A stretch of 32,000 bases of DNA from Candidatus Nanoarchaeia archaeon (GCA_028279745.1 JANQNC010000001.1:1020001-1052000), one strand, 5' to 3'. Counted from the first letter of the stretch, positions 2,548 through 22,470 are shown. Program-made: numbers and translations. The notes: generated by a model from the sequence alone, not told the origin.

Positions 2548-3507
2548 ATGAAAAGATTCATAGACAAGATCAATCTCTCTATAGGAACAAAGATTATGGT
2601 AGGCTTGTCTATTATCATATTTATATTTGCCATTACCGCTTCACTGGCTTTAAATCAGGTAAATGATATCAAGAATCTTGCAGAAGATACAGTCCCTCTT
2701 AGTACAAATCTGGACTTTCTACATAAGTTTAGCTCATCTTTTGAGTCTTTAGAAAGAGATATAGACAAGTTTTTTTTGATCGGGTATATAGAATATAAAG
2801 AAAATGCTTATGCAGACCTGGACTCTATGTCAGATAATCTGGTCGAGTTAAGAAAATCTGAACGATACGCTCACACAGATAAATTAGATGTGATCGAAGG
2901 AGAGATAGATAACCTACAAGAGAACCTAAACACTTTAACAGATCTAGAGCGAAACATGGAGAATGCCCCACAGGTAAACAGGATCAGGGTATCATCTTAT
3001 GAGGGTATAGATATAATCAGGAGCAAGCTAGACTGCATGTTTTCTGAATCAAACGAGAAAGTACAATCTAATGTTCTGTTGCAAAGAGATATTGTTGTTA
3101 GGTTGAACAATCAGATTACAGTATTAAGCATATCCATCTTGGCGGTGGGGGTCATAGTAACTCTTCTTTTATCAAGGTCAATATCTCATCCGATCATCCA
3201 ACTAAAAGAATCGGCAGAACAGATCAGAAAAGGCAACTTGAATAATGAGATCGGAATAAAATCAAAAGATGAAGTTGGAGATCTTGCAAAAGCCTTTGAA
3301 GATATGCGCAGGGGGTTAAAAGACAGAAATCAACTATTGAATACAATACTAAAAGCACTTAAGGGTAAAGTGGGAGGAGTTGCTGCAATACCTCTCAGAA
3401 AAAGCATTGCAGACCTTTCGAAAAAGAACGAAAGGGTGCTTAGTTTACTTCCGAGGTCAATAGTAACTACAATAAAGAAGGAGTCAAAGATAAAAAAGAA
3501 AAAATAA
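2548..3507 (+). CDS. Membrane sensor-like protein: TM1, about 150-aa extracytoplasmic helical domain, TM2, HAMP domain, Lys-rich tail; no output domain
   Basis: HAMP signature SISHPIIQLKESAEQIRKGNLNNEIGIKSKDEVGDLAKAFEDMRRGL follows TM2 (ITVLSISILAVGVIVTLLL). The protein ends about 55 aa later in KKESKIKKKK, with no kinase, MCP or GGDEF module. It starts 6 nt after the solute-binding gene. Confidence 0.7.
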   Translation: MKRFIDKINLSIGTKIMVGLSIIIFIFAITASLALNQVNDIKNLAEDTVPLSTNLDFLHKFSSSFESLERDIDKFFLIGYIEYKENAYADLDSMSDNLVELRKSERYAHTDKLDVIEGEIDNLQENLNTLTDLERNMENAPQVNRIRVSSYEGIDIIRSKLDCMFSESNEKVQSNVLLQRDIVVRLNNQITVLSISILAVGVIVTLLLSRSISHPIIQLKESAEQIRKGNLNNEIGIKSKDEVGDLAKAFEDMRRGLKDRNQLLNTILKALKGKVGGVAAIPLRKSIADLSKKNERVLSLLPRSIVTTIKKESKIKKKK

Positions 3508-3649
3508 ATGTGTCTTTTTTGGACGTGAATCTTTTACTGTAATGCATAGAGTTTTTTGACTCGCATACATGAAGCATTCACACCAGTGCGTCATGAGCTC
3601 TTGTCAGCCCTAACAGATAAAAGAATAAGTTATACGAACGAGGTAAAAA

Positions 3650-4405
3650 ATGAAAAAAGAATGTCTGGATTATAAAAAAGCTATTGAGATCGCTCCAGGA
3701 ATATATTGGGTCGGTTATAACATCAAAAACAAATGGTTTCAGACAAATGCTTATCTTGTCGTTGAAGGAGATGAAGCTGTTTTGATCGATCCTGGAAGCC
3801 AGACTGATTTTTCAAAGGTCTTTACAAAAATAAAATCTGTCTGCTCCTTGAAAAAATTAAAACATGTTATTTTACACCACCAAGATCCTGATCTGTGCGG
3901 AAGCACATCAAAATTTGAGACAGTTGCTGAAATATTTATATACGTTCCTCAAAGAGCAGCTGTTTTTATAGACTTTTACGGGATAAACTCATTGATCAAT
4001 CCCATATCTCAAGATGGGGAAGTTCTGGAATTCAAGACAGGAAGAAAGCTAAGATTTTTCTTGACACCTTACTGTCATTCTCCAGGAGCGATGGTCACCT
4101 ATGACGAAAAAAGCAAGATCCTGTTTTCAAGCGACATTTTTGGAGCGTTCTATAACAGATGGGAACTATATGCTGATATGGTCGGTAACAAGACCCACCT
4201 AGAATCAGTCAAGTCTTTTATGGAACCTTACATGGCATCAAAAGAAGCGGTCATGAATTTCGTCAATAAGGCAGAAAAACTTAAAATAAAGATGATCTGT
4301 CCGCAGCACGGCTCAATAATCCGAAAAGATATATCTGGCTGGTTCGACAAATTAAAAAAAATGAGATATGGAACTGCGCTTAAAGAGGGGGAAACAGGAT
4401 TGTGA
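3650..4405 (+). CDS. Metallo-beta-lactamase-fold protein resembling the di-iron core domain of flavodiiron proteins (ODP-like); no flavodoxin domain
   Basis: The matches to FDP core motifs are:
- IAPGIYWVG...TNAYLV...AVLIDPG
- HHQDPDLCG at the HxExDH position
- TPYCHSPGAM
- LFSSDIFGAF
- ICPQHGSII
An SD (GAGGT) precedes the ATG. Confidence 0.65.
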   Translation: MKKECLDYKKAIEIAPGIYWVGYNIKNKWFQTNAYLVVEGDEAVLIDPGSQTDFSKVFTKIKSVCSLKKLKHVILHHQDPDLCGSTSKFETVAEIFIYVPQRAAVFIDFYGINSLINPISQDGEVLEFKTGRKLRFFLTPYCHSPGAMVTYDEKSKILFSSDIFGAFYNRWELYADMVGNKTHLESVKSFMEPYMASKEAVMNFVNKAEKLKIKMICPQHGSIIRKDISGWFDKLKKMRYGTALKEGETGL

Positions 4406-4413
4406 TGTTTCAC

Positions 4414-4442
4414 AAAGCACCTGCTGGTCCGAGTGCTTTTTT
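4414..4442 (+). terminator. Hairpin plus T-run downstream of the MBL gene
   Basis: AAAGCAC (4414..4420) pairs with GTGCTTT (4433..4439), and the sequence runs into TTTTTT. Confidence 0.45.
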
Positions 4443-4545
4443 GCATAGTAAAAGAGGCAATATGATGCTCTCAAGCTAGAAAATCGGTGGACTGCTTGCT
4501 TTCAAAAAAGAAGATTTATAAAAGGTAAGATTAAATAACAGAAAT

Positions 4546-5412
4546 ATGAGAAAAGTAGTTATCTTTTTAGCGGTTTTATTTATTTATTCTAGTTTTGCTC
4601 TGGCAGGTATTCCTGAGGACTGCGATATTAACATGATTAATTACTGGAAGCTTAATGAAACCTCAGGCAGTGCTATTGATTATGTTGGTGGTGATGACGG
4701 AACAGTAACAGGAGCAACACAAGGGGTTACAGGACAAGTTGATACTGCATACTATTTTGATGGAAGTGATGACTATATTAGTGCTGGCAGCTCTGTACTT
4801 TCAGGAAACACAGGACCTTTTACGGTATCTGCATGGTTCAATACAGACACTGTAACAGTACACTCTCAAACAATCGTTGCGAAAGATGACAGGACTCCAG
4901 GAAATTCAAAAAGAATGTTCCAGATACAAACATTTAATGATGATGTACTAGCTTATGTATGGGACGACTCAACAGGAGCCTATTTAGGAAAACAATTAAC
5001 AAACTATTTAATTCCAAATCAGTGGCATCATGTTGCACTAGTCTATCATGGAGGATCTGATGTACGTCTTTATGTTGACGGCACAGAAAGAACGACTGTT
5101 TTTTCAGGAGGAACATTCTCAGGGATAGATAATACTGATGCAAACTTTATGATAGGAATATTTAGTTTATCAGGATCTCTAACCAGAGATTTTAATGGAA
5201 TGATTGATGAAGTAACAGTTCACAACAAAGCTCTGGCCAGTTCCGAAGTTCAAGAATTATATGACTTAGGCAGTCAAAATTCCAGCTATTGTCCATCTTT
5301 TGTAGAACAAAGTGAAGTTCCTGAAGTAAACAGAAATCATACTGTTAAAAATTGGATCCTTGTCGCTATACTGGTTGCCTTGATCGGAATTATTTTTATC
5401 AAAAAGAACTAA
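4546..5412 (+). CDS. Secreted, C-terminally membrane-anchored LamG/concanavalin-A-like lectin domain protein
   Basis: Evidence for the call:
- An N-terminal signal peptide.
- LamG_3-type motifs: YWKLNETSGSAIDYVGG, AYYFDGSDDYI, FTVSAWF, WHHVALVY, LYVDG, FNGMIDEVTVHNKALASSEV.
- A C-terminal TM helix, WILVAILVALIGIIFI.
A TATA-like GATTTATAAAAGG lies about 25 nt upstream. Confidence 0.75.
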   Translation: MRKVVIFLAVLFIYSSFALAGIPEDCDINMINYWKLNETSGSAIDYVGGDDGTVTGATQGVTGQVDTAYYFDGSDDYISAGSSVLSGNTGPFTVSAWFNTDTVTVHSQTIVAKDDRTPGNSKRMFQIQTFNDDVLAYVWDDSTGAYLGKQLTNYLIPNQWHHVALVYHGGSDVRLYVDGTERTTVFSGGTFSGIDNTDANFMIGIFSLSGSLTRDFNGMIDEVTVHNKALASSEVQELYDLGSQNSSYCPSFVEQSEVPEVNRNHTVKNWILVAILVALIGIIFIKKN

Positions 5413-5488
5413 CCAAATAACCCGACGATTATTTGTAACCCTTAACTCATTTCTAAGCTAAACTTCCTAATATGAACACTAGGTACTA

Positions 5489-5500
5489 ATGCCCCCGCCG
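5489..5500. repeat. Direct repeat copy 1 (ATGCCCCCGCCG), identical to the 3' end of tRNA-Glu plus one flanking nucleotide
   Basis: An exact 12-nt match to 8025..8036 in the same orientation. This is a very GC-rich word in an AT-rich intergenic region. Confidence 0.6.
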
Positions 5501-5680
5501 CATTTAGAACATCCAGTTCTAGTCCTAAACGCATTTTTTTATCGTGATAACGGCTTAAAGGTACTGAGACATTTAAATATAAAAGGTTTTTGATTGACTT
5601 TTATGGATTGAAGAGTAAGTTGCCTTTTTCTGATTTAATTGAGGATATCTGAGAAGTATCTCTTTTTTGAGTCTTATATA

Positions 5681-6220
5681 CTATTTGAACGGAGATTTAG
5701 AAGAAAATTTATTGTTTAGGTATTTGTATATTTTAGTGAATTCATAGTTATTTATCAAAAAGTTGTCTGTGTTCTTTTTTAATTCTATGTCTAGTAAATT
5801 TAAATCAACATACTTTACATCTGCAACTTCATCTTTGTTGAAATTTATTTTTGATACTTCGATATCTGTCTGAATAACATATACTTTCAAATGTTCTGAA
5901 TTCTTGTTATTAGTATAACTATAAGAAGTAATGTGGTTTAAATCACTTTTATTAAAAATTAAGTTTAATTCTTCTTTGAGTTCTCTGATTGCAGCATCCA
6001 AACAGCTTTCATCAATTCTTACATGACCTCCAACGGAACAAGACCAAGTATTAGGATATTGTAACTTATTCAAACTTCTTTTTTGTAATAAAACTTTGCC
6101 TTCTTTGTTAAATATCCAAATGTTTACTGCTTCATGCCAAAGATTATTAGAGTGTGCTTTCTCTTTGCTACTTGTACCTGTGCGATTACCTATTTTGTCA
6201 AAAATATTAATTATTTCCAT
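5681..6220 (-). CDS. Nudix hydrolase (IDI-like subfamily fold) with a near-canonical Nudix box
   Basis: Nudix box GHVRIDESCLDAAIRELKEELNL fits GX5EX7REUXEEXGU except the final G is N. The upstream signature is LWHEAVNIWIFNKEGKVLLQKRSLNKLQYPNTWSCSVGGH. The track ORF starts at 6253. Alignment with the N-terminus of the upstream paralogous domain favours the ATG at 6220 (MEIINIFDK), which lies 1 nt after the upstream stop at 6222..6224. Confidence 0.8.
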   Translation of the reverse strand: MEIINIFDKIGNRTGTSSKEKAHSNNLWHEAVNIWIFNKEGKVLLQKRSLNKLQYPNTWSCSVGGHVRIDESCLDAAIRELKEELNLIFNKSDLNHITSYSYTNNKNSEHLKVYVIQTDIEVSKINFNKDEVADVKYVDLNLLDIELKKNTDNFLINNYEFTKIYKYLNNKFSSKSPFK

Positions 6221-6221
6221 T

Positions 6222-7796
6222 TTATTGATGATCTGGTTTAATGCAAAAATCATTAAAATACTCTTCTTTATTTATTTTATAATGCAAGATACTGTCTAAG
6301 ACCGGGCTCTTATACAAATCTCCTTTTGTTAAAACAGTATAGTTTTCATCTTTAGCATTACAAAAACAGAAAACATGACCTTCTTTCTTATTAAAAAATC
6401 TAATAGAGGATATTGCTTTTGTACATTTATTTTTTTCATTACACTGTTCACAAACTTTTTGAAATCTAAAATTTTGGTTAAATACTTTTACTGTAAGTTT
6501 ATTGCCTTTAGCATCTTCATAATTGCATATTTCAGTTGCACCTGGCACTCTTATTGTTATATTTTTCTTTTTAACTTTTAATTCATTAAGAATCTTTTTA
6601 ACAGTCTCTGTAGAACCTTTTATTCTACCATTTGATCTGTCTCTTTGCATTCTTGGCTCTATGCCGTTTTCCCAACACCATTTAATGAAATTTAAAGCAT
6701 CGTTAATATCTGTTAGTCCTGAACAAACAACATTTGTTTTTATGGTTGTATCATAATTCTGTTTAAGCATCAAAACGCTTTTTTTAATAAGGTTATTACG
6801 GTTGGGGTCGACAGTTTTATAATTTTTTATTAATTCAGTTCTAATTTCATTATTTTTATCTAAGGGGGTGTAACTAAATGTTAATTCGTCGATGCAGTTT
6901 AGTTTATACAATTCTTTAATAACATCAACATCAATCAGATTAGTAACGATATTAATTTTGAAATTATTTTCTTTTAACTTAATACAAATCTCCATTAGAT
7001 CTTTGCATAGAGTGGGTTCTCCACCTGTAAGATGTATTGTATTATAATGAAATTTTTCTCTGAAATCGTTTAACATTTTAATTAAATCTTCAGAGTATGA
7101 AAAATCAATCATACTTTCACTATTAATCTCAGGGCTAGAAAAATTTCCTTTTTTATATATGCAAAATTCACAATTAAGATTGCATCTTTCAGTTAAAACC
7201 ATTCTTAAAGCAGGTTCATTCTCTAAAACAACTTCATCAAAAATACCAAAAGGGGTCTTGTATTTCTTTTTTAATATAACTTTGTCTAACAGATCATTAA
7301 GAATAGACAATTCTTGATCTTGAATGAAAATATTTCTTAATTCAGACAGTTTACAGTATTTTATTTCAGAAATTTCTTTTTTATTCATGTTTAAACTCTG
7401 AATAGAAACATCTTCAAAAAATACAAGAACATTAACAAACTCATTATTGATTAAAACTTCGCCCTCAGTTGTGGTCTGAGTAACTTGTTGCTTATATCTA
7501 AACTTATTAGCAACACTATTTAAAGAAAAACCCAATTCATTTTCTATTTGTTTTCTAGCAGATTTTTCTAGACTTTCGCCTGAAATCAGATGACCTGCAC
7601 AACTACATGTCCAAGTATCAGGCCTTATCTTCTTTGTAGACGTTCTTTTCTGAACTAATAACTCATTATTTTTATTAACGATCCAAACATGAATTGATTC
7701 ATGCCATAGCCCTTTCTCATGAATCTCCTGTTTTGATAAAACTTTACCAGTTGATTCTCCCTTCTCATTTAAAACGTCTAAATATTTAACCCCCAT
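6222..7796 (-). CDS. Fusion protein: N-terminal Nudix-fold domain with a degenerate Nudix box, plus a radical SAM domain with a MoaA/twitch-like C-terminal Cys cluster
   Basis: N-terminal domain, aa 1 to about 170:
- Nudix-fold signature LWHESIHVWIVNKNNELLVQKRTSTKKIRPDTWTCSCAGH.
- Its box GHLISGESLEKSARKQIENELGF has RE replaced by KQ and EE replaced by NE.
Radical SAM domain:
- CX3CX2C motif CNLNCEFC, encoded at 7161..7184.
- GGE motif HLTGGEPTL.
- C-terminal cysteines VCEQCNEKNKC ... IRFFNKKEGHVFCFC.
A leaderless-type TATA lies about 24 nt upstream at 7820..7827. Confidence 0.8.
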   Translation of the reverse strand: MGVKYLDVLNEKGESTGKVLSKQEIHEKGLWHESIHVWIVNKNNELLVQKRTSTKKIRPDTWTCSCAGHLISGESLEKSARKQIENELGFSLNSVANKFRYKQQVTQTTTEGEVLINNEFVNVLVFFEDVSIQSLNMNKKEISEIKYCKLSELRNIFIQDQELSILNDLLDKVILKKKYKTPFGIFDEVVLENEPALRMVLTERCNLNCEFCIYKKGNFSSPEINSESMIDFSYSEDLIKMLNDFREKFHYNTIHLTGGEPTLCKDLMEICIKLKENNFKINIVTNLIDVDVIKELYKLNCIDELTFSYTPLDKNNEIRTELIKNYKTVDPNRNNLIKKSVLMLKQNYDTTIKTNVVCSGLTDINDALNFIKWCWENGIEPRMQRDRSNGRIKGSTETVKKILNELKVKKKNITIRVPGATEICNYEDAKGNKLTVKVFNQNFRFQKVCEQCNEKNKCTKAISSIRFFNKKEGHVFCFCNAKDENYTVLTKGDLYKSPVLDSILHYKINKEEYFNDFCIKPDHQ

Positions 7797-7819
7797 TCAA
7801 AGTGGCATTTAAGTTTAGC

Positions 7820-7827
7820 TTATAAAA
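7820..7827 (-). promoter_or_regulatory. Putative TATA box for the Nudix-radical SAM operon
   Basis: The minus strand reads TTTTATAA, ending about 24 nt upstream of the ATG at 7796. That spacing fits a leaderless archaeal transcript. Confidence 0.35.
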
Positions 7828-8024
7828 TTATTCCAAATAAACTCCTACTGATTGCTGTCTCGGTGTGAACTAAAATTACTGAACTCCATGTTCAAGTCCC
7901 TGCGGAGAAGTAGAACTTCCAGATGAGTGCCCCTTCTAAATATTTTATACTATATAAGTTTAAGGCGTTACAAAAACGTTGAGAATTACCCTAAAAAAGG
8001 GTGGGGAGTCGTACCCCATGTTTT

Positions 8025-8036
8025 ATGCCCCCGCCG
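8025..8036. repeat. Direct repeat copy 2 (ATGCCCCCGCCG), overlapping the 3' acceptor end of tRNA-Glu
   Basis: An exact match to 5489..5500. Positions 8027..8033 are the acceptor 3' strand and 8026 is the discriminator base. Confidence 0.6.
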
Positions 8037-8146
8037 GGACTTTCGACATCACTAACGTTGAAAGCTACGAACGTCAGTGAGTATGTTCGAACCCGAGTCC
8101 CCAGATCGAAAATCTGGGATGATTGGCCGGACTACACCACAGGGGC
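8026..8146 (-). tRNA. tRNA-Glu, anticodon UUC, with one 46-nt intron at the 3' side of the T-loop
   Basis: The minus strand reads GCCCCTG TG GTGT AGTCCGGCCAA TCAT C CCAGA TTTTCGA TCTGG GGAC TCGGG TTCGAAC [intron 8084..8039] CCCGG CGGGGGC A. The GGTGTAGTCCGGCCAATCAT block is the conserved archaeal tRNA-Glu D-arm. Exons sum to 75 nt. Confidence 0.8.
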
Positions 8147-8290
8147 GGTTCAGATATTTTAGTCCTTTAACGATTTGAGTTCAGAAGTTATTTAAAAAGA
8201 TTTTGATTTGGTGGGGTATATCGATTATAATTCAAAAGCTTTATAAATGCCAAATCCAAAGAGTGTGTTTAACATACAAGTTAGAGGCTG

Positions 8291-10165
8291 ATGATGAAAA
8301 AACTGACATTACTATTAATGTGTTTAATTCTAAGTATTGGTATTGTTGCAGCAACAGGTGGAGGACATAAAGGGTATTGTGGCGATGGAAGCATAGATCA
8401 TTTTGAAGACTGTGATGACGGCAACACGGTAAGTGGAGATGGTTGCAGCAGATACTGTCTAATCGAATGTGTTTCTGGATCAGATTCAGACGGAGATGAT
8501 ATCTGTAATAATGATGATAACTGTCCTTACGACTTTAACCCAGGACAAGAAGATTTCAATAATGATGGAACAGGTGATGCCTGTGATAACGAATGTATTC
8601 TATTAAGCTTTGAAGAAGATCCAAACGGAAATCCAATACACGCAGGAACTGTAATAGATGATGAATTTGAAGATTGGGGAGTTAATGTGTATGTAATTAA
8701 TGCAGCAGCATCACACCCAGACGAAGCGATAATATTTAACTCATCAAATCCAACGGGTGGAGATCCAGACTTAGGAACACCAAGTAATATTTATGGGGGG
8801 CCAGGACTTGGATCTGGAGGAGAGACAAACAAGTACCCTTTACAAAACATATTGATCATTGCAGAAGATGATGTTGATAACAATAATGACGGGTTAGTTG
8901 ATGATCCAGATGATGAAGCAAACGGAGGGAACATCTACTTTAACTTTACAGATCCAGTAACTTTCAACTACATAAAAGTATTAGACATAGACGAACTAAG
9001 CTATAAAGATAAAGTAAAACTATACAATGAAGAAGGATATCTTATTGATTATGAACACATCATAGGTACAGGTTATGGAGACAACTCAGTACAAACAATA
9101 TATTTTGATACAGGAAACACAAGTGTAGCAAGAGTAAAACTTGTAGGAAGTGCAGGAGTAGATGATCTTTACTGGTGTCCATTAACACCACCTCCGGTAT
9201 GTGGAGATGGAGATGTAAACCAACTGAGCGAAGAATGTGATGATGGAAATGCATTTGATGATGATGAATGTACAAATGCATGTACCTTGCCAGTATGTGG
9301 AGACAGTATAGTTCAAGAAGGAGAAGAGTGTGATGATGGCAACCAAATAGATAATGATGCTTGCACTAACTCATGTATGCTGCCTTACTGTGGAGACAGT
9401 ATAGTTCAAGAAGGAGAAGAGTGTGATGATGGCAACCAAATAGATAATGATGAATGTACAAATGTCTGCTCTTTACCAGTGTGTGGAGACAGCATAATCC
9501 AAACAGGTGAAGAGTGCGATGACGGAAACACGATAGATGAAGACGGATGCAGTGATGTATGTCTGATAGAATATTGTGGAGATAACATATTACAAACAGA
9601 CTTAGGAGAACAGTGTGACGATGGAAACAACATAGACAGCGACGGATGTTCAAGCACATGTGTTCAAGAATTCTGTGGAGACAATATTGTACAAGGAGCT
9701 CTGGGAGAAGAGTGTGATGACGGCAATAATGCTGATGGTGATGGATGTAACGCAATATGTAAAAATGAGTATTGTGGAGATGGAATACAACAGTCAGGCG
9801 AAGGATGTGATGATGGCAATACACAAGATGATGATGGGTGTTCAAGTACCTGTGATTTAGAGTACTGTGGAGATGGAATCTTACAACCTTTATCAGGAGA
9901 GGAATGCGATGACGGCAACAGTAACAATGACGATGGATGTTCAAACAGCTGCTTGCTTCCGGTGTGTGGAGACGGACAGGTACAAGGAGATGAAGAGTGT
10001 GACGACGGTAACTTAATAGACGGAGATGGATGCAGTTCAAATTGTAATGATGAATTCTACGGCGAAGAAGAAATACCTGAAGTAGATGCAGTATTTGTAT
10101 TTGCAGTTATGATAGCAAGCTTCATAGGATTTGTAGTGGGACAGAATAAGAAAAAACCATTATAA
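8291..10165 (+). CDS. Secreted, C-terminally anchored Cys-rich repeat surface protein (thrombospondin type-3-like Ca-binding repeat plus 10 CGDG...EECDDGN...DGCS..C repeats of the DUF4215 / Myxococcus cysteine-rich repeat type)
   Basis: Domain layout, N to C:
- Signal peptide.
- One Cys-rich repeat, YCGDGSIDHFEDCDDGNTVSGDGCSRYC.
- TSP3-like DSDGDDICNNDDNCPYDFNPGQEDFNNDGTGDACD.
- A central region of about 200 aa.
- Nine tandem 31-33-aa Cys repeats.
- TM helix VFVFAVMIASFIGFVV and a KKKPL tail. Confidence 0.8.
   Translation: MMKKLTLLLMCLILSIGIVAATGGGHKGYCGDGSIDHFEDCDDGNTVSGDGCSRYCLIECVSGSDSDGDDICNNDDNCPYDFNPGQEDFNNDGTGDACDNECILLSFEEDPNGNPIHAGTVIDDEFEDWGVNVYVINAAASHPDEAIIFNSSNPTGGDPDLGTPSNIYGGPGLGSGGETNKYPLQNILIIAEDDVDNNNDGLVDDPDDEANGGNIYFNFTDPVTFNYIKVLDIDELSYKDKVKLYNEEGYLIDYEHIIGTGYGDNSVQTIYFDTGNTSVARVKLVGSAGVDDLYWCPLTPPPVCGDGDVNQLSEECDDGNAFDDDECTNACTLPVCGDSIVQEGEECDDGNQIDNDACTNSCMLPYCGDSIVQEGEECDDGNQIDNDECTNVCSLPVCGDSIIQTGEECDDGNTIDEDGCSDVCLIEYCGDNILQTDLGEQCDDGNNIDSDGCSSTCVQEFCGDNIVQGALGEECDDGNNADGDGCNAICKNEYCGDGIQQSGEGCDDGNTQDDDGCSSTCDLEYCGDGILQPLSGEECDDGNSNNDDGCSNSCLLPVCGDGQVQGDEECDDGNLIDGDGCSSNCNDEFYGEEEIPEVDAVFVFAVMIASFIGFVVGQNKKKPL
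9197..10054 (+). repeat. In-frame tandem coding repeats (9 units of about 93-99 nt) inside the Cys-rich surface protein gene
   Basis: Units begin (V/Y/F)CGD... Units 2 and 3 share a perfect 64-nt stretch (9296..9359 equals 9389..9452, period 93 nt). Confidence 0.85.
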
Positions 10166-10724: not shown

Positions 10725-12195
<1,471 letters not shown>

Positions 12196-12259: not shown

Positions 12260-12389
12260 GGGCCCGTGGCTCAATGGTAGAGCGCTGCCCTTGCACATGC
12301 AGAAATGCATTCAAGTAAGGCAGAGGTTTCGGGTTCAAATCGGATACACAAAAAAGAGGTGTGGTCCGCTGAAAGTCCCGACGGGTCCA
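12260..12389 (+). tRNA. tRNA-Ala, anticodon UGC, in the 16S-23S spacer, with two introns (about 22 nt after position 37; about 36 nt at the 3' side of the T-loop)
   Basis: The sequence reads GGGCCCG TG GCTC AATGGTA GAGC G CTGCC CTTGCA [intron about 12296..12317] A GGCAG AGGTT TCGGG TTCAAAT [intron about 12341..12376] CCCGA CGGGTCC A. The G3:U70 alanine identity pair is present. Exons sum to 72 nt. Confidence 0.85.
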
Positions 12390-12556: not shown

Positions 12557-12583
12557 TTTTACCTTTAGGTAAAAAGTTTCTAA

Positions 12584-15470
12584 AAAACTGTTAGGTGGAT
12601 GACTTGGCTCAAGACGCCGATGAAGGGTGTGACAAGCTGCACTATGCTCTGGCGAGTAGCAGGTATACATTGAACCAGAGATCCCCTAATGTGACTTCAC
12701 ATTAGATCCGAAAGGATAGGGAACGCGGTGAATTGAAACGTCTTAGTAACCGCAGGAAAAGATATCAAATGATATGCCGTGAGTAAAGGCGATTGAAAAC
12801 GGTATAAGGCAAACTGAATCCGGTACAGAAATGTATTGGAGATGTGGTCTGGCTGTTCTTTTATCTTAGCTAAAAGATCCGAAGTTTCTGGAAAGAAACG
12901 CCTTAGAGGGTGATAGCCCCGTAGGAGTAAGTTAGTAGATTTTGAATAGTTCAAGAGTAGTGTCAATTGGATATTTGGCATGAATATGGGAGGCATCAAC
13001 TTCCAACCTTAAACACGTCTTGAGTCCGATAGCAAAGGAGTACCGTGAGGGAAAGTTGAAAAGGACCCATAATAGGAAGTCAAAAGCCCCTGAAACCTAA
13101 CAGTTATAGTGGGGTACGGCTCTTCGGAGTTGTGCCGTGCGTTTTGAATAACGTGCCAGGGAGTTTAGTTAAGTGGCAAGGGTAATTCTGTTAAAGAAGC
13201 ACCCAGAGCGAAAGCAATAAGCCCGCAATTTATGAGGGGCAAGGTATGAAAATGCCTGAAGTCACTTGGCTAAGACCCGAAGCCGAGCGAGCTATTCTTG
13301 GGCAAGGTGAAGCGGAGGTTAGACTCCGTGGAGGCCTGCAGAGGTGCTACGGGCAAGTGCTCTTCTGACCTGAGAATAGGGGTAAAAAGCCAATCGAGCT
13401 CGGTGATAGCTGGTTCCTGTCAAAGTTGGCCGTAGTCAAGCCTCGGAGGAGATAACTAAGAGGGTAGAGATACGGATTTGAGATTTAGGGGAAGAAATTC
13501 CTCGGTTTCTTGTCCAACTCCAAATATTTTAGTGTCGTAGATTCCGGGAGACGGGGGGTAGGGGTAAGCCCTATTCCCGAGAGGGGAACAACCCAAACCG
13601 TGGTTAAGGTCCCAAAATATCGTTCAAGTGTTAAAGGGTGAAGAGTGTTTGTAACCATAGACAGCTGGGAGGTTAGCTTAGAAGCAGCCACCCTTCAAAA
13701 AGTGCGTAACAGCTTACCAGTCGAGGTTGCAAGCCTCTAAAATGGACGGGGCTAAAGCGATTACCGATACCACGGACTATCGCAAGATAAGTAGTAGACA
13801 GGCGTTCTGATAGGGCGGAAGCATCTTTACGAAAAGATGTGGACCTTTTAGAATTGAAAATCCTGGTGAGAGTAGGAACAGAGCAGAGTTAGAATCTCTG
13901 CCGCCGAAAGGGCAAGGGTTCCTTGACAATGCAAATCAGTCAAGGGTTAGTCGATCCTAATTCATCTCTTAACTGAATTGATGGAGAAAGGGAAGCAGGT
14001 TAATATTCCTGCACTGTTTAAGTATGAGTGGCAACACAAGTCTTATTTCTGACACTTTAGGATAGACCAACATATGATTAAGTATGCTAACCGGAGTAAA
14101 TCAAGGGAGTATTGTAATGATGAGAACTTGATCAAAACCGGGAATGGTACCTCGTATGAGGTATTTGATTGATTCCTTGAGTCCATGAAAAAGGAATAAG
14201 AATAAATCTTAAACATTCGTACCCAGAACCAGCACAGGTGCCCCTAGGTGAGTAGCCTAAGGTGTGAGGGACTAATCTACATAAGGGAATTCGGCAAATT
14301 CGCCCCGTGCCTTCGGTATAAGGGGTCCCTGACTTCGTACTTGCATAAGTGCGATGCTAGGGTTTAATAACTAGGTCGATCCGACTGTTTAACAAAAACA
14401 CAACTTACTGCTAGCCTGAAAAGGTGCGTACAGTAGGTGACGTCTGCCCAGTGCCAGTACTTCAAACTCCGTTCCAACGGAGCTAAGAGCTGGTAAACGG
14501 CGGGGGTAACTATAACTCTCTTAAGGTAACGAAATGCCTTGCCGTTTGATTGACGGCCTGCATGAATGGCGTAACGAGATCGACGCTGTCCCTATGTAGA
14601 TCCCCCTGAACACTCTTTTGCGGTGCAAAGGCCGCAGATTTCCAGTGGGAAGCGAAGACCCCGTGAAACTTTACTGTAGCTTGTTGTTGCGGTGTATGAT
14701 TCTTTGCACAGAGTAGAAAGGAGCTGTTACGCTAACGATTCCGGTCGTTAGATAGGCAACAATGTAACACTTTCCTTGGAATTGTATATCGCTAACCGGA
14801 TACTTGATATCCGAGACATCAACTGGTGGACAGTTTGGCTGGGGTGGCACCCCGTCGAAAATGTATCGATGGGGCCCAATGGTAAACTCATCCGATTTAG
14901 AAATTCGGAGTAGAGTGTAAGGGCAAAAGTTTGCCTGACAGGATCTGTACCAATACTAGATTCTGAGTAGAAATACTGGCCTAGCGATCCTCCGTACCTC
15001 CTTGATGGGGGTCGGGGATGACCGAAAAGTTACTCCGGGGATAACAGAGTTGTCGCGTCCGAGAGCTCATATCGACGACGCGGCTTGCTACATCGATGTC
15101 GGCTCTTCCTATCCTGGCCGTGCAGAAGCGGCCAAGGGTGGGGGTGTTCACCCATTAAAAGGGATCGTGAGCTGGGTTCACAACGCTGTGAGGCAGTTGG
15201 TTTGATATCTACTGGAAATGTCAGGTGTCTGATAGGAAGGATCTCCTAGTACGAGAGGAACGGAGTGTTCGAAGCCACTGGTGTATCGATTATCTAACAA
15301 GGTATGTTGAGCAGCTACGCTTTAGAGGATAAGTACTGAAAGCATCTAAGTACGAAACCTCCCTAGAAAAGAGACACTTTGAACACTTGTAAAAGACAAG
15401 TTTGATGGGATTGACGTGTAAGTACCAAGCTTCGGCGAGGTATTCAGCGTGCAATTACCAATAGTTCGTA
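12584..15470 (+). rRNA. rrl: 23S rRNA (archaeal), about 2.9 kb; ends are approximate (about +/-15 nt)
   Basis: Landmarks:
- GGTGGATGACTTGGCTCAAGACGCCGATGAAGG near the 5' end.
- Sarcin-ricin loop AGTACGAGAGGAAC at 15248..15261.
- Helix 1 pairing of about 12586..12596 with about 15457..15466. Confidence 0.95.
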
Positions 15471-15631
15471 CTTACTTTGTGAGGCTACAAAAGTTTAAAC
15501 CTATGCATGGTTTTATTTTTAATTTTTTAATTAAAAATTTATTTAAGAAAAAATTTATTTTAGCGATAGCTTTTATAACAAACAGAATATTTATAAAAGG
15601 ATTATCTAATAACTAATCTTTAGACTAAAAA

Positions 15632-21738: not shown

Positions 21739-22470
21739 ATGGCAAAAAGACTAACTCGGCAAGAAATTAATGAAATCAATAAACTGATTGAAAAAGGGTT
21801 TTCTTTGAATAAAATAAGAGATGCCACTGGAAAATCAAAAACTACAGTTTATTATCACTTTAGACGATTTAAAGGGCCTACAGTTAAACCCATCACACTA
21901 AAATCTCATGATGAGGAACTAATTGGAGAGTTTATGGGTTTATTTGCAGGAGATGGTTGTTTGTATAAGACAAAAAATTATATTTATAGAGCTTATCTTT
22001 ACTTTAACATTATTGAGAAAGCTTTTGTTGATGAACTAATAAGTGAGGTCTTAATTAAACTATTTGGTAAAAAGCCAATGGTATTTAGAAAGGAGAACAG
22101 ATTAAACTTATGTTATTATTCTAAGAATATTCATGAGTTCGTTAAAGAATATCTGATTTGGGATAAGAGTTCAAGAAAAACATACTCTGTTAGATTGGCC
22201 AAAGAAAAACACACTTTTGAGTTTATGGTTGGATTTTTGAGAGGTTCCGTAGATAGTGATGGTTATTTCTCTAAGAATAGAATAAGTTTTGCTACTGTTT
22301 CTGAAGGGTTGATGAAAAACATTTCAAATTATCTATCTGAATTAAACATTTTACATTCTGTTAGGTTGTACAAAGAGAAAAGAGAGAATCGAAAAGACAT
22401 TTATCATATAACAATTTCTAAAAAAGATCATAAAAGATTTGTTAGTCTAATTAATCCCAGAAATAAGTAA
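21739..22470 (+). CDS. Free-standing double-motif LAGLIDADG homing endonuclease with an N-terminal helix-turn-helix domain
   Basis: Motif 1 is LIGEFMGLFAGDGCL. Motif 2 is FMVGFLRGSVDSDGYF, about 100 aa later. The N-terminal HTH-like segment is LNKIRDATGKSKTTVYYHFRRF. The gene is not embedded in an intron or an intein host. Confidence 0.8.
   Translation: MAKRLTRQEINEINKLIEKGFSLNKIRDATGKSKTTVYYHFRRFKGPTVKPITLKSHDEELIGEFMGLFAGDGCLYKTKNYIYRAYLYFNIIEKAFVDELISEVLIKLFGKKPMVFRKENRLNLCYYSKNIHEFVKEYLIWDKSSRKTYSVRLAKEKHTFEFMVGFLRGSVDSDGYFSKNRISFATVSEGLMKNISNYLSELNILHSVRLYKEKRENRKDIYHITISKKDHKRFVSLINPRNK

Follow-up and report, generated by a model that had tools for sequence, protein, structure and literature searches.

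Several radical SAM (S-adenosylmethionine) enzymes rewrite nucleotides, and each of them – MoaA, viperin, AbmM, QueE and OxsB – has brought to light novel chemistry as well as nucleoside analogues of use as antivirals or antibiotics. Viperins, the ddhNTP synthases, act on the ribose of nucleoside triphosphates (NTPs), often lie in mobile islands, have nucleotide kinases as partners and are not known to carry an auxiliary cluster. AbmM takes a cytidine diphosphate as its substrate. In MoaA, the GTP 3',8-cyclase, arginines R17, R266 and R268 belong to the GTP site, and Mob_synth_C, the CNRxR segment and a C-terminal Gly-Gly are described as essential (PMC12625886). AbmM works in a nucleoside-antibiotic pathway, where it swaps sulfur for the ring oxygen of the albomycin nucleoside sugar, its own [4Fe-4S] cluster being the sulfur donor (PMC12691670). 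Tubercidin synthesis combines the radical SAM enzyme TubB with the phosphoribosyl pyrophosphate (PRPP) transferase TubE and the tailoring Nudix hydrolase TubG (PMC6112128). The three-gene 4'-thiothymidine cluster (ThmA-C) encodes a radical SAM enzyme, a kinase and a nucleoside triphosphatase, the last of which alone gives self-resistance (PMC12691670). Here we describe a cassette of two genes, lying in 32 kb of archaeal chromosomal DNA (the window; Candidatus Nanoarchaeia archaeon, JANQNC010000001.1:1020001-1052000), that falls outside the MoaA, viperin and IDI families. Gene 1 encodes a Nudix-like domain fused to a radical SAM domain and gene 2 a stand-alone Nudix hydrolase (Table 1). We read the locus as a horizontally acquired unit for the radical modification of a nucleotide, in which the fused Nudix domain is probably non-hydrolytic and the partner Nudix active, and we give this reading about equal weight for and against.

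The locus had been singled out in an annotation made from the sequence alone (the original prediction), which described a two-gene operon with a 1-nt gap whose first gene joins an IDI-like Nudix domain to a radical SAM core. Both descriptions are confirmed. The junction reads CAT CAA TAA a ATG GAA, which puts a single base (6221) between the stop codon of gene 1 (6222-6224) and the ATG of gene 2 (6218-6220), and Pfam finds NUDIX and Radical_SAM domains in gene 1. The open reading frame (ORF) that contains gene 2 spans 5681-6253 (-); the assigned start is supported by the orthologous Nudix of a second locus, L002, which opens with the same residues, MEII. Translation of gene 2 is probably coupled to that of gene 1. 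L002 comes from an unrelated, independent metagenome assembly and carries a fused orthologue (P0002, 535 aa, 56% identical to gene 1) followed directly by its own 171-aa Nudix gene, so the fusion is not an artefact of assembly or gene calling. Both fusion and pairing therefore occur in another genome, and since both genes are intact in the window and in L002 there is no sign of decay. A sigma-70 promoter scan gave only background, the sigma-70 model being uninformative for an archaeon.

The family to which gene 1 belongs is uncharacterised and extremely rare, in agreement with the earlier statement that no characterised pathway is known to have this architecture. It numbers about ten sequences among roughly 15 billion proteins, with the fusion seen only twice, in the window and in L002. 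Word-indexed searching of 5.8 billion clusters turned up no more than eight relatives over the radical SAM domain, of which two are fused, while an exhaustive hidden Markov model (HMM) search of 1.84 billion cluster representatives gave five clusters under E 1e-30, plus fragments. HMM scores drop after the family from 260 to about 115 bits, and the best near-full-length non-member reaches about 100 bits. There is one member among the 185,579 species representatives of GTDB, three further members were found in JGI metagenomes, and IMG/VR, the GenBank phages and the PLSDB plasmids yielded none. Around this last score lies a large cloud of MoaA-like proteins of ~320 aa, which likewise fall under all cut-offs; family and cloud proteins together make up the 59-sequence alignment used below.

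The C-terminal part of gene 1 is a member of the radical SAM superfamily, as its cluster motif, GGE motif, fold and Pfam score (PF04055, aa 199-308, E 2.4e-13, 51.1 bits against a cut-off of 29.5) attest. The CNLNCEFC and HLTGGEPTL motifs and the C-terminal cysteine stretch VCEQCN...IRFFNKKEGHVFCFC (aa 448-479) are all present as first read. The domain scores under every curated NCBIfam cut-off. The best models are those of MoaA (52.4 vs 284 bits for TIGR02666, 44.1 vs 231 for NF001199 and 42.6 vs 325 for TIGR02668), prokaryotic viperin (NF038283, 50.3 vs 180 bits), NrdG2 and Tes. PADLOC gave no system-level match; its pVip model scored 53 bits over positions 4-159 of 257, a partial match to the shared core only, and its generic Nudix model of the candidate system PDC-S07 scored 33.6 bits.

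An AlphaFold2 (AF2) model of aa 171-524, built on the 59-sequence alignment, has a predicted local distance difference test (pLDDT) score of 92.5 and a predicted TM-score (pTM) of 0.91. Its top Foldseek match in the PDB is MoaA (2fb2/1tv7; E 2e-8, 351-373 columns, TM 0.52-0.58), followed by SuiB, SkfB, BlsE, NifB, viperins (E ~1e-6) and GDGT-MAS, and all top matches are radical SAM enzymes. BlsE, viperins, AbmM and DesII, whose substrates are all nucleotide-linked, are among the matches following MoaA for one or other of our models, and QueE is also among the Foldseek matches. A search of the viral structures in BFVD gave generic radical SAM matches only. With hhalign, the family aligns to genuine MoaA sequences (98.8% probability, E 4e-17) from the LR(M/I)xLT strand to the CxxCN of the second cluster. 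The residues aligned with MoaA R17 (R198 here), K163, N165 and R192 are conserved, R382 being 83% conserved in the wider alignment A4. N355, K437 and R466 are common to the family and the ~320-aa cloud proteins, and Y179, T181, G184 and F186 mark an N-terminal β-hairpin specific to the family. The best PDB sequence match of the family profile is GDGT-MAS, spanning just ~100 core residues.

The original prediction likened the C-terminal tail to that of MoaA-type enzymes and left room for a twitch or SPASM-like domain. The MoaA-like fold and profile and a conserved cysteine cluster agree with the first part; the tail motif itself, as aligned, is of AbmM (twitch) type on a MoaA-like scaffold. Four cysteines invariant across the alignment (Table 1) agree with the auxiliary-cluster features anticipated for this domain. 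C449 and C452 align with the CxxC of MoaA, and these two together with C458 and R466 align with CGTCRDAARC...LRL in AbmM. In an hhalign comparison of the eight-member family with AbmM (PDB 8wm2; 96.8%), VCEQCNEKNKC...IRF lies over RCGTCRDAARC...LRL, so that CX2CX5C-x-(E/K)...(L/I)R(L/V)...C is matched residue by residue. The profile of the 59-sequence alignment scores 108 bits with MoaA and 99 bits with AbmM, other solved proteins being far lower, and its alignment to AbmM runs through the CX2CX5C...C motif. Differences from AbmM lie in the replacement of FCHNEG by FCIYK, in Lys460 after the third cysteine, where AbmM and 81% of the cloud carry Glu, and in the absence of albomycin genes from the family's contexts.

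MoaA (1tv7, 2fb2, 2fb3) is the best structural match to the whole domain, and the CX3CX2C and GGE motifs and the first two cysteines of the second cluster align between the two, but identity is only 16%. The MoaA tail has three cysteines (CX2CX13C), CNRxR and the terminal Gly-Gly, whereas the family has four cysteines and ends in ...P(D/N/E/K/I)(H/F)Q without Gly-Gly. Because CNEKNKC replaces the CNRxR segment there is no equivalent of R266; R466 is perhaps the counterpart of R268, though this is judged by eye and only if an insertion of 11 residues is allowed for. Mob_synth_C (PF06463) is absent from gene 1 (E <=0.1) and from 59/59 relatives. The family also adds the N-terminal β-hairpin and, in two members, the fused Nudix domain, and has no molybdenum cofactor genes around it. 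Judged against the seven-Cys SPASM motif CX9-15GX4C...CX2CX5CX3C...C, the position of the CX3C cysteine is Ile462, and the SPASM Pfam domain is found in 0/59 relatives; of the domains that the original prediction wished to see checked, Mob_synth_C and SPASM are thus missing and a twitch-type motif aligned with AbmM is there. Taken together with the scores above, these differences led us to reject gene 1 as a true MoaA. It was also rejected as a true viperin on the NF038283 score and the core-only pVip match; its similarity to viperins lies in the radical SAM core, and its C-terminal domain differs.

Genomic context is the strongest functional clue. The neighbourhood survey that had been suggested recovered ten independent contexts, counting L003/L004, L005-L007 and L097/L098 once each. 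In the window and L002 the fused Nudix domain is accompanied by a downstream IDI-like Nudix. L003, in a Firmicute-like contig with CotJA/B and SLH genes, has a 139-aa MutT-like Nudix 104 nt downstream, and L177 has a divergent 154-aa Nudix with a canonical box. Orotate phosphoribosyltransferase (OPRT)-like phosphoribosyltransferases (PRTases) are adjacent in three further contexts: a 289-aa protein downstream on the same strand in L008, its 278-aa homologue (31% identity, E 1e-25), divergent, in L009, and a distinct PRTase-like protein of 292 aa, encoded convergently across a gap of 2 nt, in L005. The others are L099, with BrnT/BrnA upstream and an HD phosphohydrolase ~0.5 kb away, L097, with small unknown ORFs and a large serine recombinase, and L178, a 1.8-kb contig with CMAS-type and other methyltransferases. 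A nucleotide- or PRPP-handling enzyme is therefore directly adjacent in seven of the ten contexts, the HD gene of L099 making an eighth.

The Nudix neighbours represent at least three lineages and the PRTases two. The partners in L003 and L177 are not IDI-like and, on this comparison, the Nudix partner is replaced non-orthologously at least twice. Nudix genes make up a fraction of a percent of prokaryotic genes, so that four adjacent instances in ten contexts are, by our estimate, far beyond chance. The pairing proposed originally is thus conserved and recurs with unrelated Nudix lineages, with the qualification that OPRT-like PRTases take the place of the Nudix in three contexts. Because of this recurrence a nucleotide-type substrate is the best reading, and the simplest common denominator of the contexts is a nucleotide substrate or product. 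AbmM, the DR_0079-type box of gene 2 (see below), the orotate-type PRTases and a CDP-alcohol phosphatidyltransferase downstream in L003 are weak hints at a cytidine or other pyrimidine nucleotide, which is conjecture. Among the scanned ORFs of the window (at least 120 aa, or at least 100 aa for positions 1-2600) there are no molybdopterin genes, as had been noted, no recognised defence genes and, nearby, no FolE or QueD-type genes; nor does the window hold an OPRT-like homologue.

The two Nudix modules were compared with each other and with known relatives. Pfam NUDIX (PF00293) matches gene 1 at aa 32-153 (E 3.7e-11, 43.6 bits) and gene 2 with E 8e-19 (68.4 bits). By fold and box, gene 2 is a member of the Nudix hydrolase family; its box, GX5EX7RELKEELNL, has N for the final G of the canonical box. 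The same variant, GX5EX7REX2EEXNU, occurs in Deinococcus radiodurans DR_0079, a pyrimidine nucleoside triphosphate diphosphatase preferring cytosine nucleotides (PMC5389931). In gene 1 the box runs G68-x5-E74-x7-K82 Q83 I84 E85 N86 E87, so that KQIENE in gene 1 and RELKEE in gene 2 stand at REUXEE exactly as first read. The best sequence matches of both modules are type 1 IDI of Escherichia coli, YfcD and DR_0079; the boxes of the latter two are not degenerate, whereas that of the fused domain is. Gene 2 was originally called a paralogue of the fused domain. Both are indeed IDI-like, but the term is loose: at just 31% identity gene 2 is a distant paralogue, and the unfused SCAGH-type Nudix proteins P0009-P0012 are equally close to the fused domain (30-34%). 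These four share the SCAGH and INNEF motifs with it and keep canonical REL(E/K)EE boxes, and since they are its nearest unfused relatives the degenerate box is the derived state.

The fused copy of L002 reads RQIKEE, so that the change of the first REUXEE glutamate to Gln, common to both copies, is by this comparison a shared derived feature of the fusion, the window copy having degenerated further. By mutagenesis of MutT this glutamate is the general base, and kcat falls by about four orders of magnitude when Gln takes its place. Nudix domains that bind ligands without being enzymes form an established class (PMC5389931). The original description of the fused domain as non-catalytic fits the derived, degenerate box; given RQIKEE in L002, it is inferred rather than demonstrated.

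We propose the following scheme. The C-terminal 354 residues of gene 1, which fold and profile comparisons assign to the MoaA/AbmM lineage of radical SAM enzymes, would use the CX3CX2C cluster to cleave SAM to the 5'-deoxyadenosyl radical, as is general in the superfamily. The radical would attack a nucleoside di- or triphosphate, most likely by abstracting a ribose hydrogen; this nucleotide may be one of a pyrimidine or of cytidine. The substrate may be held by R198, K353, R382/R385/R387, K437 and R466 beside a second [4Fe-4S] cluster on C449, C452, C458 and C479. The fused Nudix-fold domain, having lost the first REUXEE glutamate in both copies, probably binds and presents the diphosphate-bearing substrate, or senses it, without hydrolysis. 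Gene 2, as a putative active pyrophosphohydrolase, would convert the product or its activated form to the monophosphate, for tailoring or self-protection; TubG and the 4'-thiothymidine triphosphatase ThmC offer the analogy, in that a pyrophosphatase beside a nucleotide-modifying radical SAM enzyme can be a tailoring or an immunity enzyme. The tubercidin and 4'-thiothymidine clusters show the same division of labour, a radical SAM enzyme with a PRTase and Nudix or with an NTPase. Their radical SAM enzymes are not family-level homologues of gene 1, TubB being QueE-like and ThmA reported as unrelated to AbmM. Unlike theirs, the partners seen here alternate rather than co-occur, and the degenerate-Nudix fusion has no counterpart there.

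As to its role, the product may prove to be a specialised metabolite, an antimetabolite or a nucleotide with antiviral action. A fuller version, which we regard as possible but rather doubtful, has a mobile, self-contained unit making a new ribose-modified, perhaps cytidine, nucleotide, with the pseudo-Nudix domain as substrate capture or gate, the pyrophosphatase releasing or detoxifying the product, and the product serving as an antiviral or antimicrobial in small-genome archaea. The antiviral or signalling role, already raised in the original prediction, is speculation that none of our results supports. Were the nucleotide reading right, the family would form a distinct, deeply diverged branch of the nucleotide-rewriting radical SAM enzymes with a four-cysteine auxiliary cluster, and its fused domain a new case of a hydrolase fold reused for substrate binding. 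The changing partners (Nudix, OPRT-like, HD) narrow the search for a substrate to a short nucleotide panel. A bioactive nucleotide analogue as product would extend viperin-like or nucleoside-antibiotic chemistry to small-genome archaea.

Several observations weigh against the nucleotide scheme. The RQIKEE box of the L002 fused domain may still allow a degree of hydrolysis. In Foldseek, SuiB and SkfB, which are peptide maturases, come close to the scores of the viperins. The full-length AF2 model, made from eight sequences, is poor (pLDDT 67) and serves as a first look only, so that the mutual arrangement of the Nudix and radical SAM domains is not fixed. The family's own profile gives AbmM just 23.6 bits, the link becoming clear only by way of the ~320-aa cloud or with hhalign, and the four cysteines could fully ligate the auxiliary cluster, leaving no open iron for a substrate as in MoaA. 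Some neighbours are left unexplained, namely the PEMT/ICMT, CDP-alcohol phosphatidyltransferase and SDR genes downstream in L003 (11729-14001) and the CMAS cyclopropane-synthase-like methyltransferase 22 nt upstream in L178 (2-469). L097/L098 and L178 have no nucleotide enzyme within reach, and the HD gene of L099 lies outside the tRNA-His bracket described below.

Of the alternatives, the one that survives best, itself unlikely, has a free base or a PRPP-derived sugar phosphate as substrate, built or altered by the radical SAM enzyme, with an OPRT-like partner then loading the product onto PRPP or, in other genomes, a Nudix trimming the phosphates, by the logic of QueE/TubB to TubE to TubG. 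The three contexts with adjacent OPRT-like PRTases, the combination of radical SAM enzyme, PRTase and Nudix in the tubercidin pathway (PMC6112128) and the presence of QueE among the Foldseek matches speak for it. PRTase and Nudix, however, are never found together beside a family member and look like alternatives rather than successive steps, fold and auxiliary cluster resemble those of MoaA and AbmM, whose substrates are intact nucleotides, more closely than those of QueE, and the FolE and QueD-type genes are missing.

An isoprenoid or lipid diphosphate is, in our view, quite an unlikely substrate. The IDI-like domains would here bind isopentenyl diphosphate (IPP), dimethylallyl diphosphate (DMAPP), a prenyl or a CDP-linked lipid, which the radical SAM domain would modify as GDGT-MAS does archaeal lipids. 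It is true that both Nudix modules are closest to type 1 IDI, that GDGT-MAS is both the best PDB sequence match of the family profile and a top Foldseek match, and that lipid genes lie near two members (CMAS in L178; PEMT/ICMT and the CDP-alcohol transferase in L003). Aligned pairwise with E. coli IDI, the fused domain has the equivalents of H25, H32, H69, E87 and E116, E114 being replaced by Asn. Yet the IDI models score under their cut-offs (NF002995, cut-off 127: 80.2 bits for gene 1 and 85.9 for gene 2; TIGR02150, cut-off 105.8: 63.7 and 80.3), and neither module has the catalytic Cys67, its place being taken by Ala (gene 1) and Gly (gene 2), with the E116 equivalent retained. On these two grounds we rejected both modules as true type 1 IDI. 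Further, the Nudix partners of L003 and L177 lack the IDI resemblance, OPRT-like partners do not fit lipid chemistry, and the GDGT-MAS match is limited to the core.

The setting of the cassette bears both on its origin and on a role in defence. It was described as sitting on a tRNA-flanked, AT-rich islet. The composition stands: GC content between two copies of a 12-nt direct repeat is 0.287, as against 0.364-0.366 in the flanks and 34.4% in the non-rRNA window. The tRNA flank holds on one side only, the other having just the 12-nt copy. That tRNA, a tRNA-Glu, is interrupted within the T-arm, which is not a canonical site for introns. ARAGORN with default settings and Rfam (with both gathering and E-value thresholds) find no tRNA beside the cassette, and because brute-force in-silico splicing of 5400-5690 and 7790-8010 gave nothing we see no second flanking tRNA. 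The repeat has only two matches in the window against 0.01 expected; its proximal copy (8025-8036) is the 3' end of tRNA-Glu and its distal copy lies just beyond gene 2, so that the two bracket the cassette, which is on the opposite strand to its neighbours. Repeat and tRNA-Glu together have the att-like layout expected when an element integrates at the 3' end of a tRNA gene, although the repeat is short and the islet contains no integrase; the element may plausibly have decayed or been mobilised in trans. Separately, a 16-nt inverted repeat, 94% complementary (5450-5465 and 7811-7826), brackets the cassette from beyond gene 2 to upstream of gene 1, and may be due to chance.

Other members have comparable surroundings. 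In L002, at 117-350, three tandem tRNA-like repeats of ~70 nt lie ahead of a tRNA-Ser; in L097, an array of seven tRNAs comes before the radical SAM gene (3284-4634) and the large serine recombinase after it (7366-8525); and in L099, near-identical tRNA-His copies (5099-5172 and 7448-7520) bracket BrnT/BrnA and the radical SAM gene. The member in the Firmicute-like contig, L003, is 57% identical, and this, with the patchy distribution, argues for horizontal transfer across domains. The cassette in the window looks horizontally acquired.

A mobile defence islet encoding a viperin-type antiviral enzyme, one making 3'-deoxy-3',4'-didehydro-NTP or a similar chain terminator, would suit such surroundings. 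The tRNA gene beside the islet, the BrnT/BrnA toxin-antitoxin genes of L099 and the recombinase of L097 are what one might expect of it, viperins are among the Foldseek matches, and there are sub-threshold matches to NF038283 (50 bits) and pVip (53 bits). We nonetheless consider it very unlikely, since these scores are far under the 180-bit cut-off and cover the shared core only, the family has four invariant extra cysteines where viperins have no auxiliary cluster, and an NTP-degrading Nudix would work against a chain terminator. Moreover, the window lacks recognised defence genes and the phage, plasmid and IMG/VR collections hold no member.

Least of all can we credit a maturase that, like SuiB/SkfB, is of twitch or SPASM type and acts on peptides or proteins, or else a MoaA that has diverged but still serves molybdenum cofactor synthesis: SuiB and SkfB stand just under MoaA in Foldseek and MoaA is top by fold and profile, but the family has no conserved small precursor ORF, no recognition domain of ribosomally synthesised and post-translationally modified peptides (RiPPs) and no SPASM domain, which makes a RiPP maturase unlikely, and a MoaA would hardly score 52 vs 284 bits, lack Mob_synth_C, the GG motif and an R266 equivalent, and stand without other cofactor genes in the window.

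Table 1. Features of the cassette and its flanks; positions are counted from the first base of the 32-kb window and residues from the start of the respective protein.
Feature	Position	Strand	Basis
Gene 1, Nudix-like and radical SAM fusion, 524 aa	6222..7796 (stop codon included)	-	ORF; Pfam NUDIX and Radical_SAM; identical protein P0001, fused orthologue P0002 at 56% identity
N-terminal IDI-like Nudix-fold domain, ~aa 1-160	7317..7796	-	Pfam NUDIX; NCBIfam IDI models; PDB E. coli IDI, E 4.5e-10
Degenerate Nudix box, aa 68-90, GHLISGESLEKSARKQIENELGF, KQIENE for REUXEE	7527..7595	-	Read from sequence; alignment with relatives
Radical SAM enzyme domain, aa 171-524: N-terminal β-hairpin, partial TIM barrel, C-terminal β-rich domain	6225..7286	-	AF2 model; Foldseek; hhalign against MoaA
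CX3CX2C cluster motif CNLNCEFC (C205, C209, C212)	7161..7184	-	Family-invariant; at least 92% conserved in 59-sequence alignment
SAM-binding GGE motif HLTGGEPTL, aa 255-263	7008..7034	-	H255-P261 family-invariant; aligns with MoaA RLTGGEPL
Family-specific basic motif PRMQRDRS, aa 381-388	6633..6656	-	P381, R382, Q384, R385, D386, R387, S388 family-invariant; R382 aligns with MoaA R192
Auxiliary-cluster motif C449-x2-C452-x5-C458 ... R466 ... C479	6360..6452	-	Four Cys invariant in 59/59 aligned sequences, R466 98%
Gene 2, stand-alone IDI-like Nudix hydrolase, 179 aa	5681..6220	-	Junction sequence; Pfam NUDIX E 8e-19; 47% identical to the Nudix after the L002 fusion
Intact Nudix box of gene 2, GGHVRIDESCLDAAIRELKEELNL, GX5EX7REX2EEXNU	5960..6028	-	Read from sequence; G-to-N variant as in DR_0079
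12-nt direct repeat ATGCCCCCGCCG, distal copy	5489..5500	+	Exact; proximal copy is the 3' end of tRNA-Glu
tRNA-Glu(TTC), ~45-nt insertion in T-arm; cassette directly 3'	8026..8146	-	ARAGORN after in-silico removal of 43-48 nt

Elsewhere the window carries a 16S rRNA gene (10725-12195) and a 23S rRNA gene (12570-15481), both found with Rfam, together with housekeeping genes for arginyl-tRNA synthetase, enolase, the N-terminal subunit of transketolase, Dus and a DHH phosphoesterase. The 16S-23S spacer holds a tRNA (12260-12337, +) that scores just 31 bits with Rfam and is missed by ARAGORN; with the interrupted tRNA-Glu, it suggests that the genome has atypical tRNAs. A free-standing ORF at 21739-22470 (+), with HTH_38 and LAGLIDADG homing-endonuclease domains and a GC content of 0.288, lies outside any rRNA or intein host gene. 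Between tRNA-Glu and the rRNA operon, at 8291-10165 (+), is encoded a 624-aa secreted or anchored protein with nine cysteine-rich DUF4215 repeats (CGDG...CDDGN...DGC). Finally, in a metagenome-assembled genome from Parcubacteria (L011, 6632-12742), a gene for a distant, AbmM-like radical SAM protein of ~320 aa occurs with an S66 (MccF/LD-carboxypeptidase-type) peptidase, a class II aminoacyl-tRNA synthetase paralogue and a pyridoxal phosphate (PLP) enzyme, a locus that looks like an aminoacyl-nucleoside antibiotic cluster.

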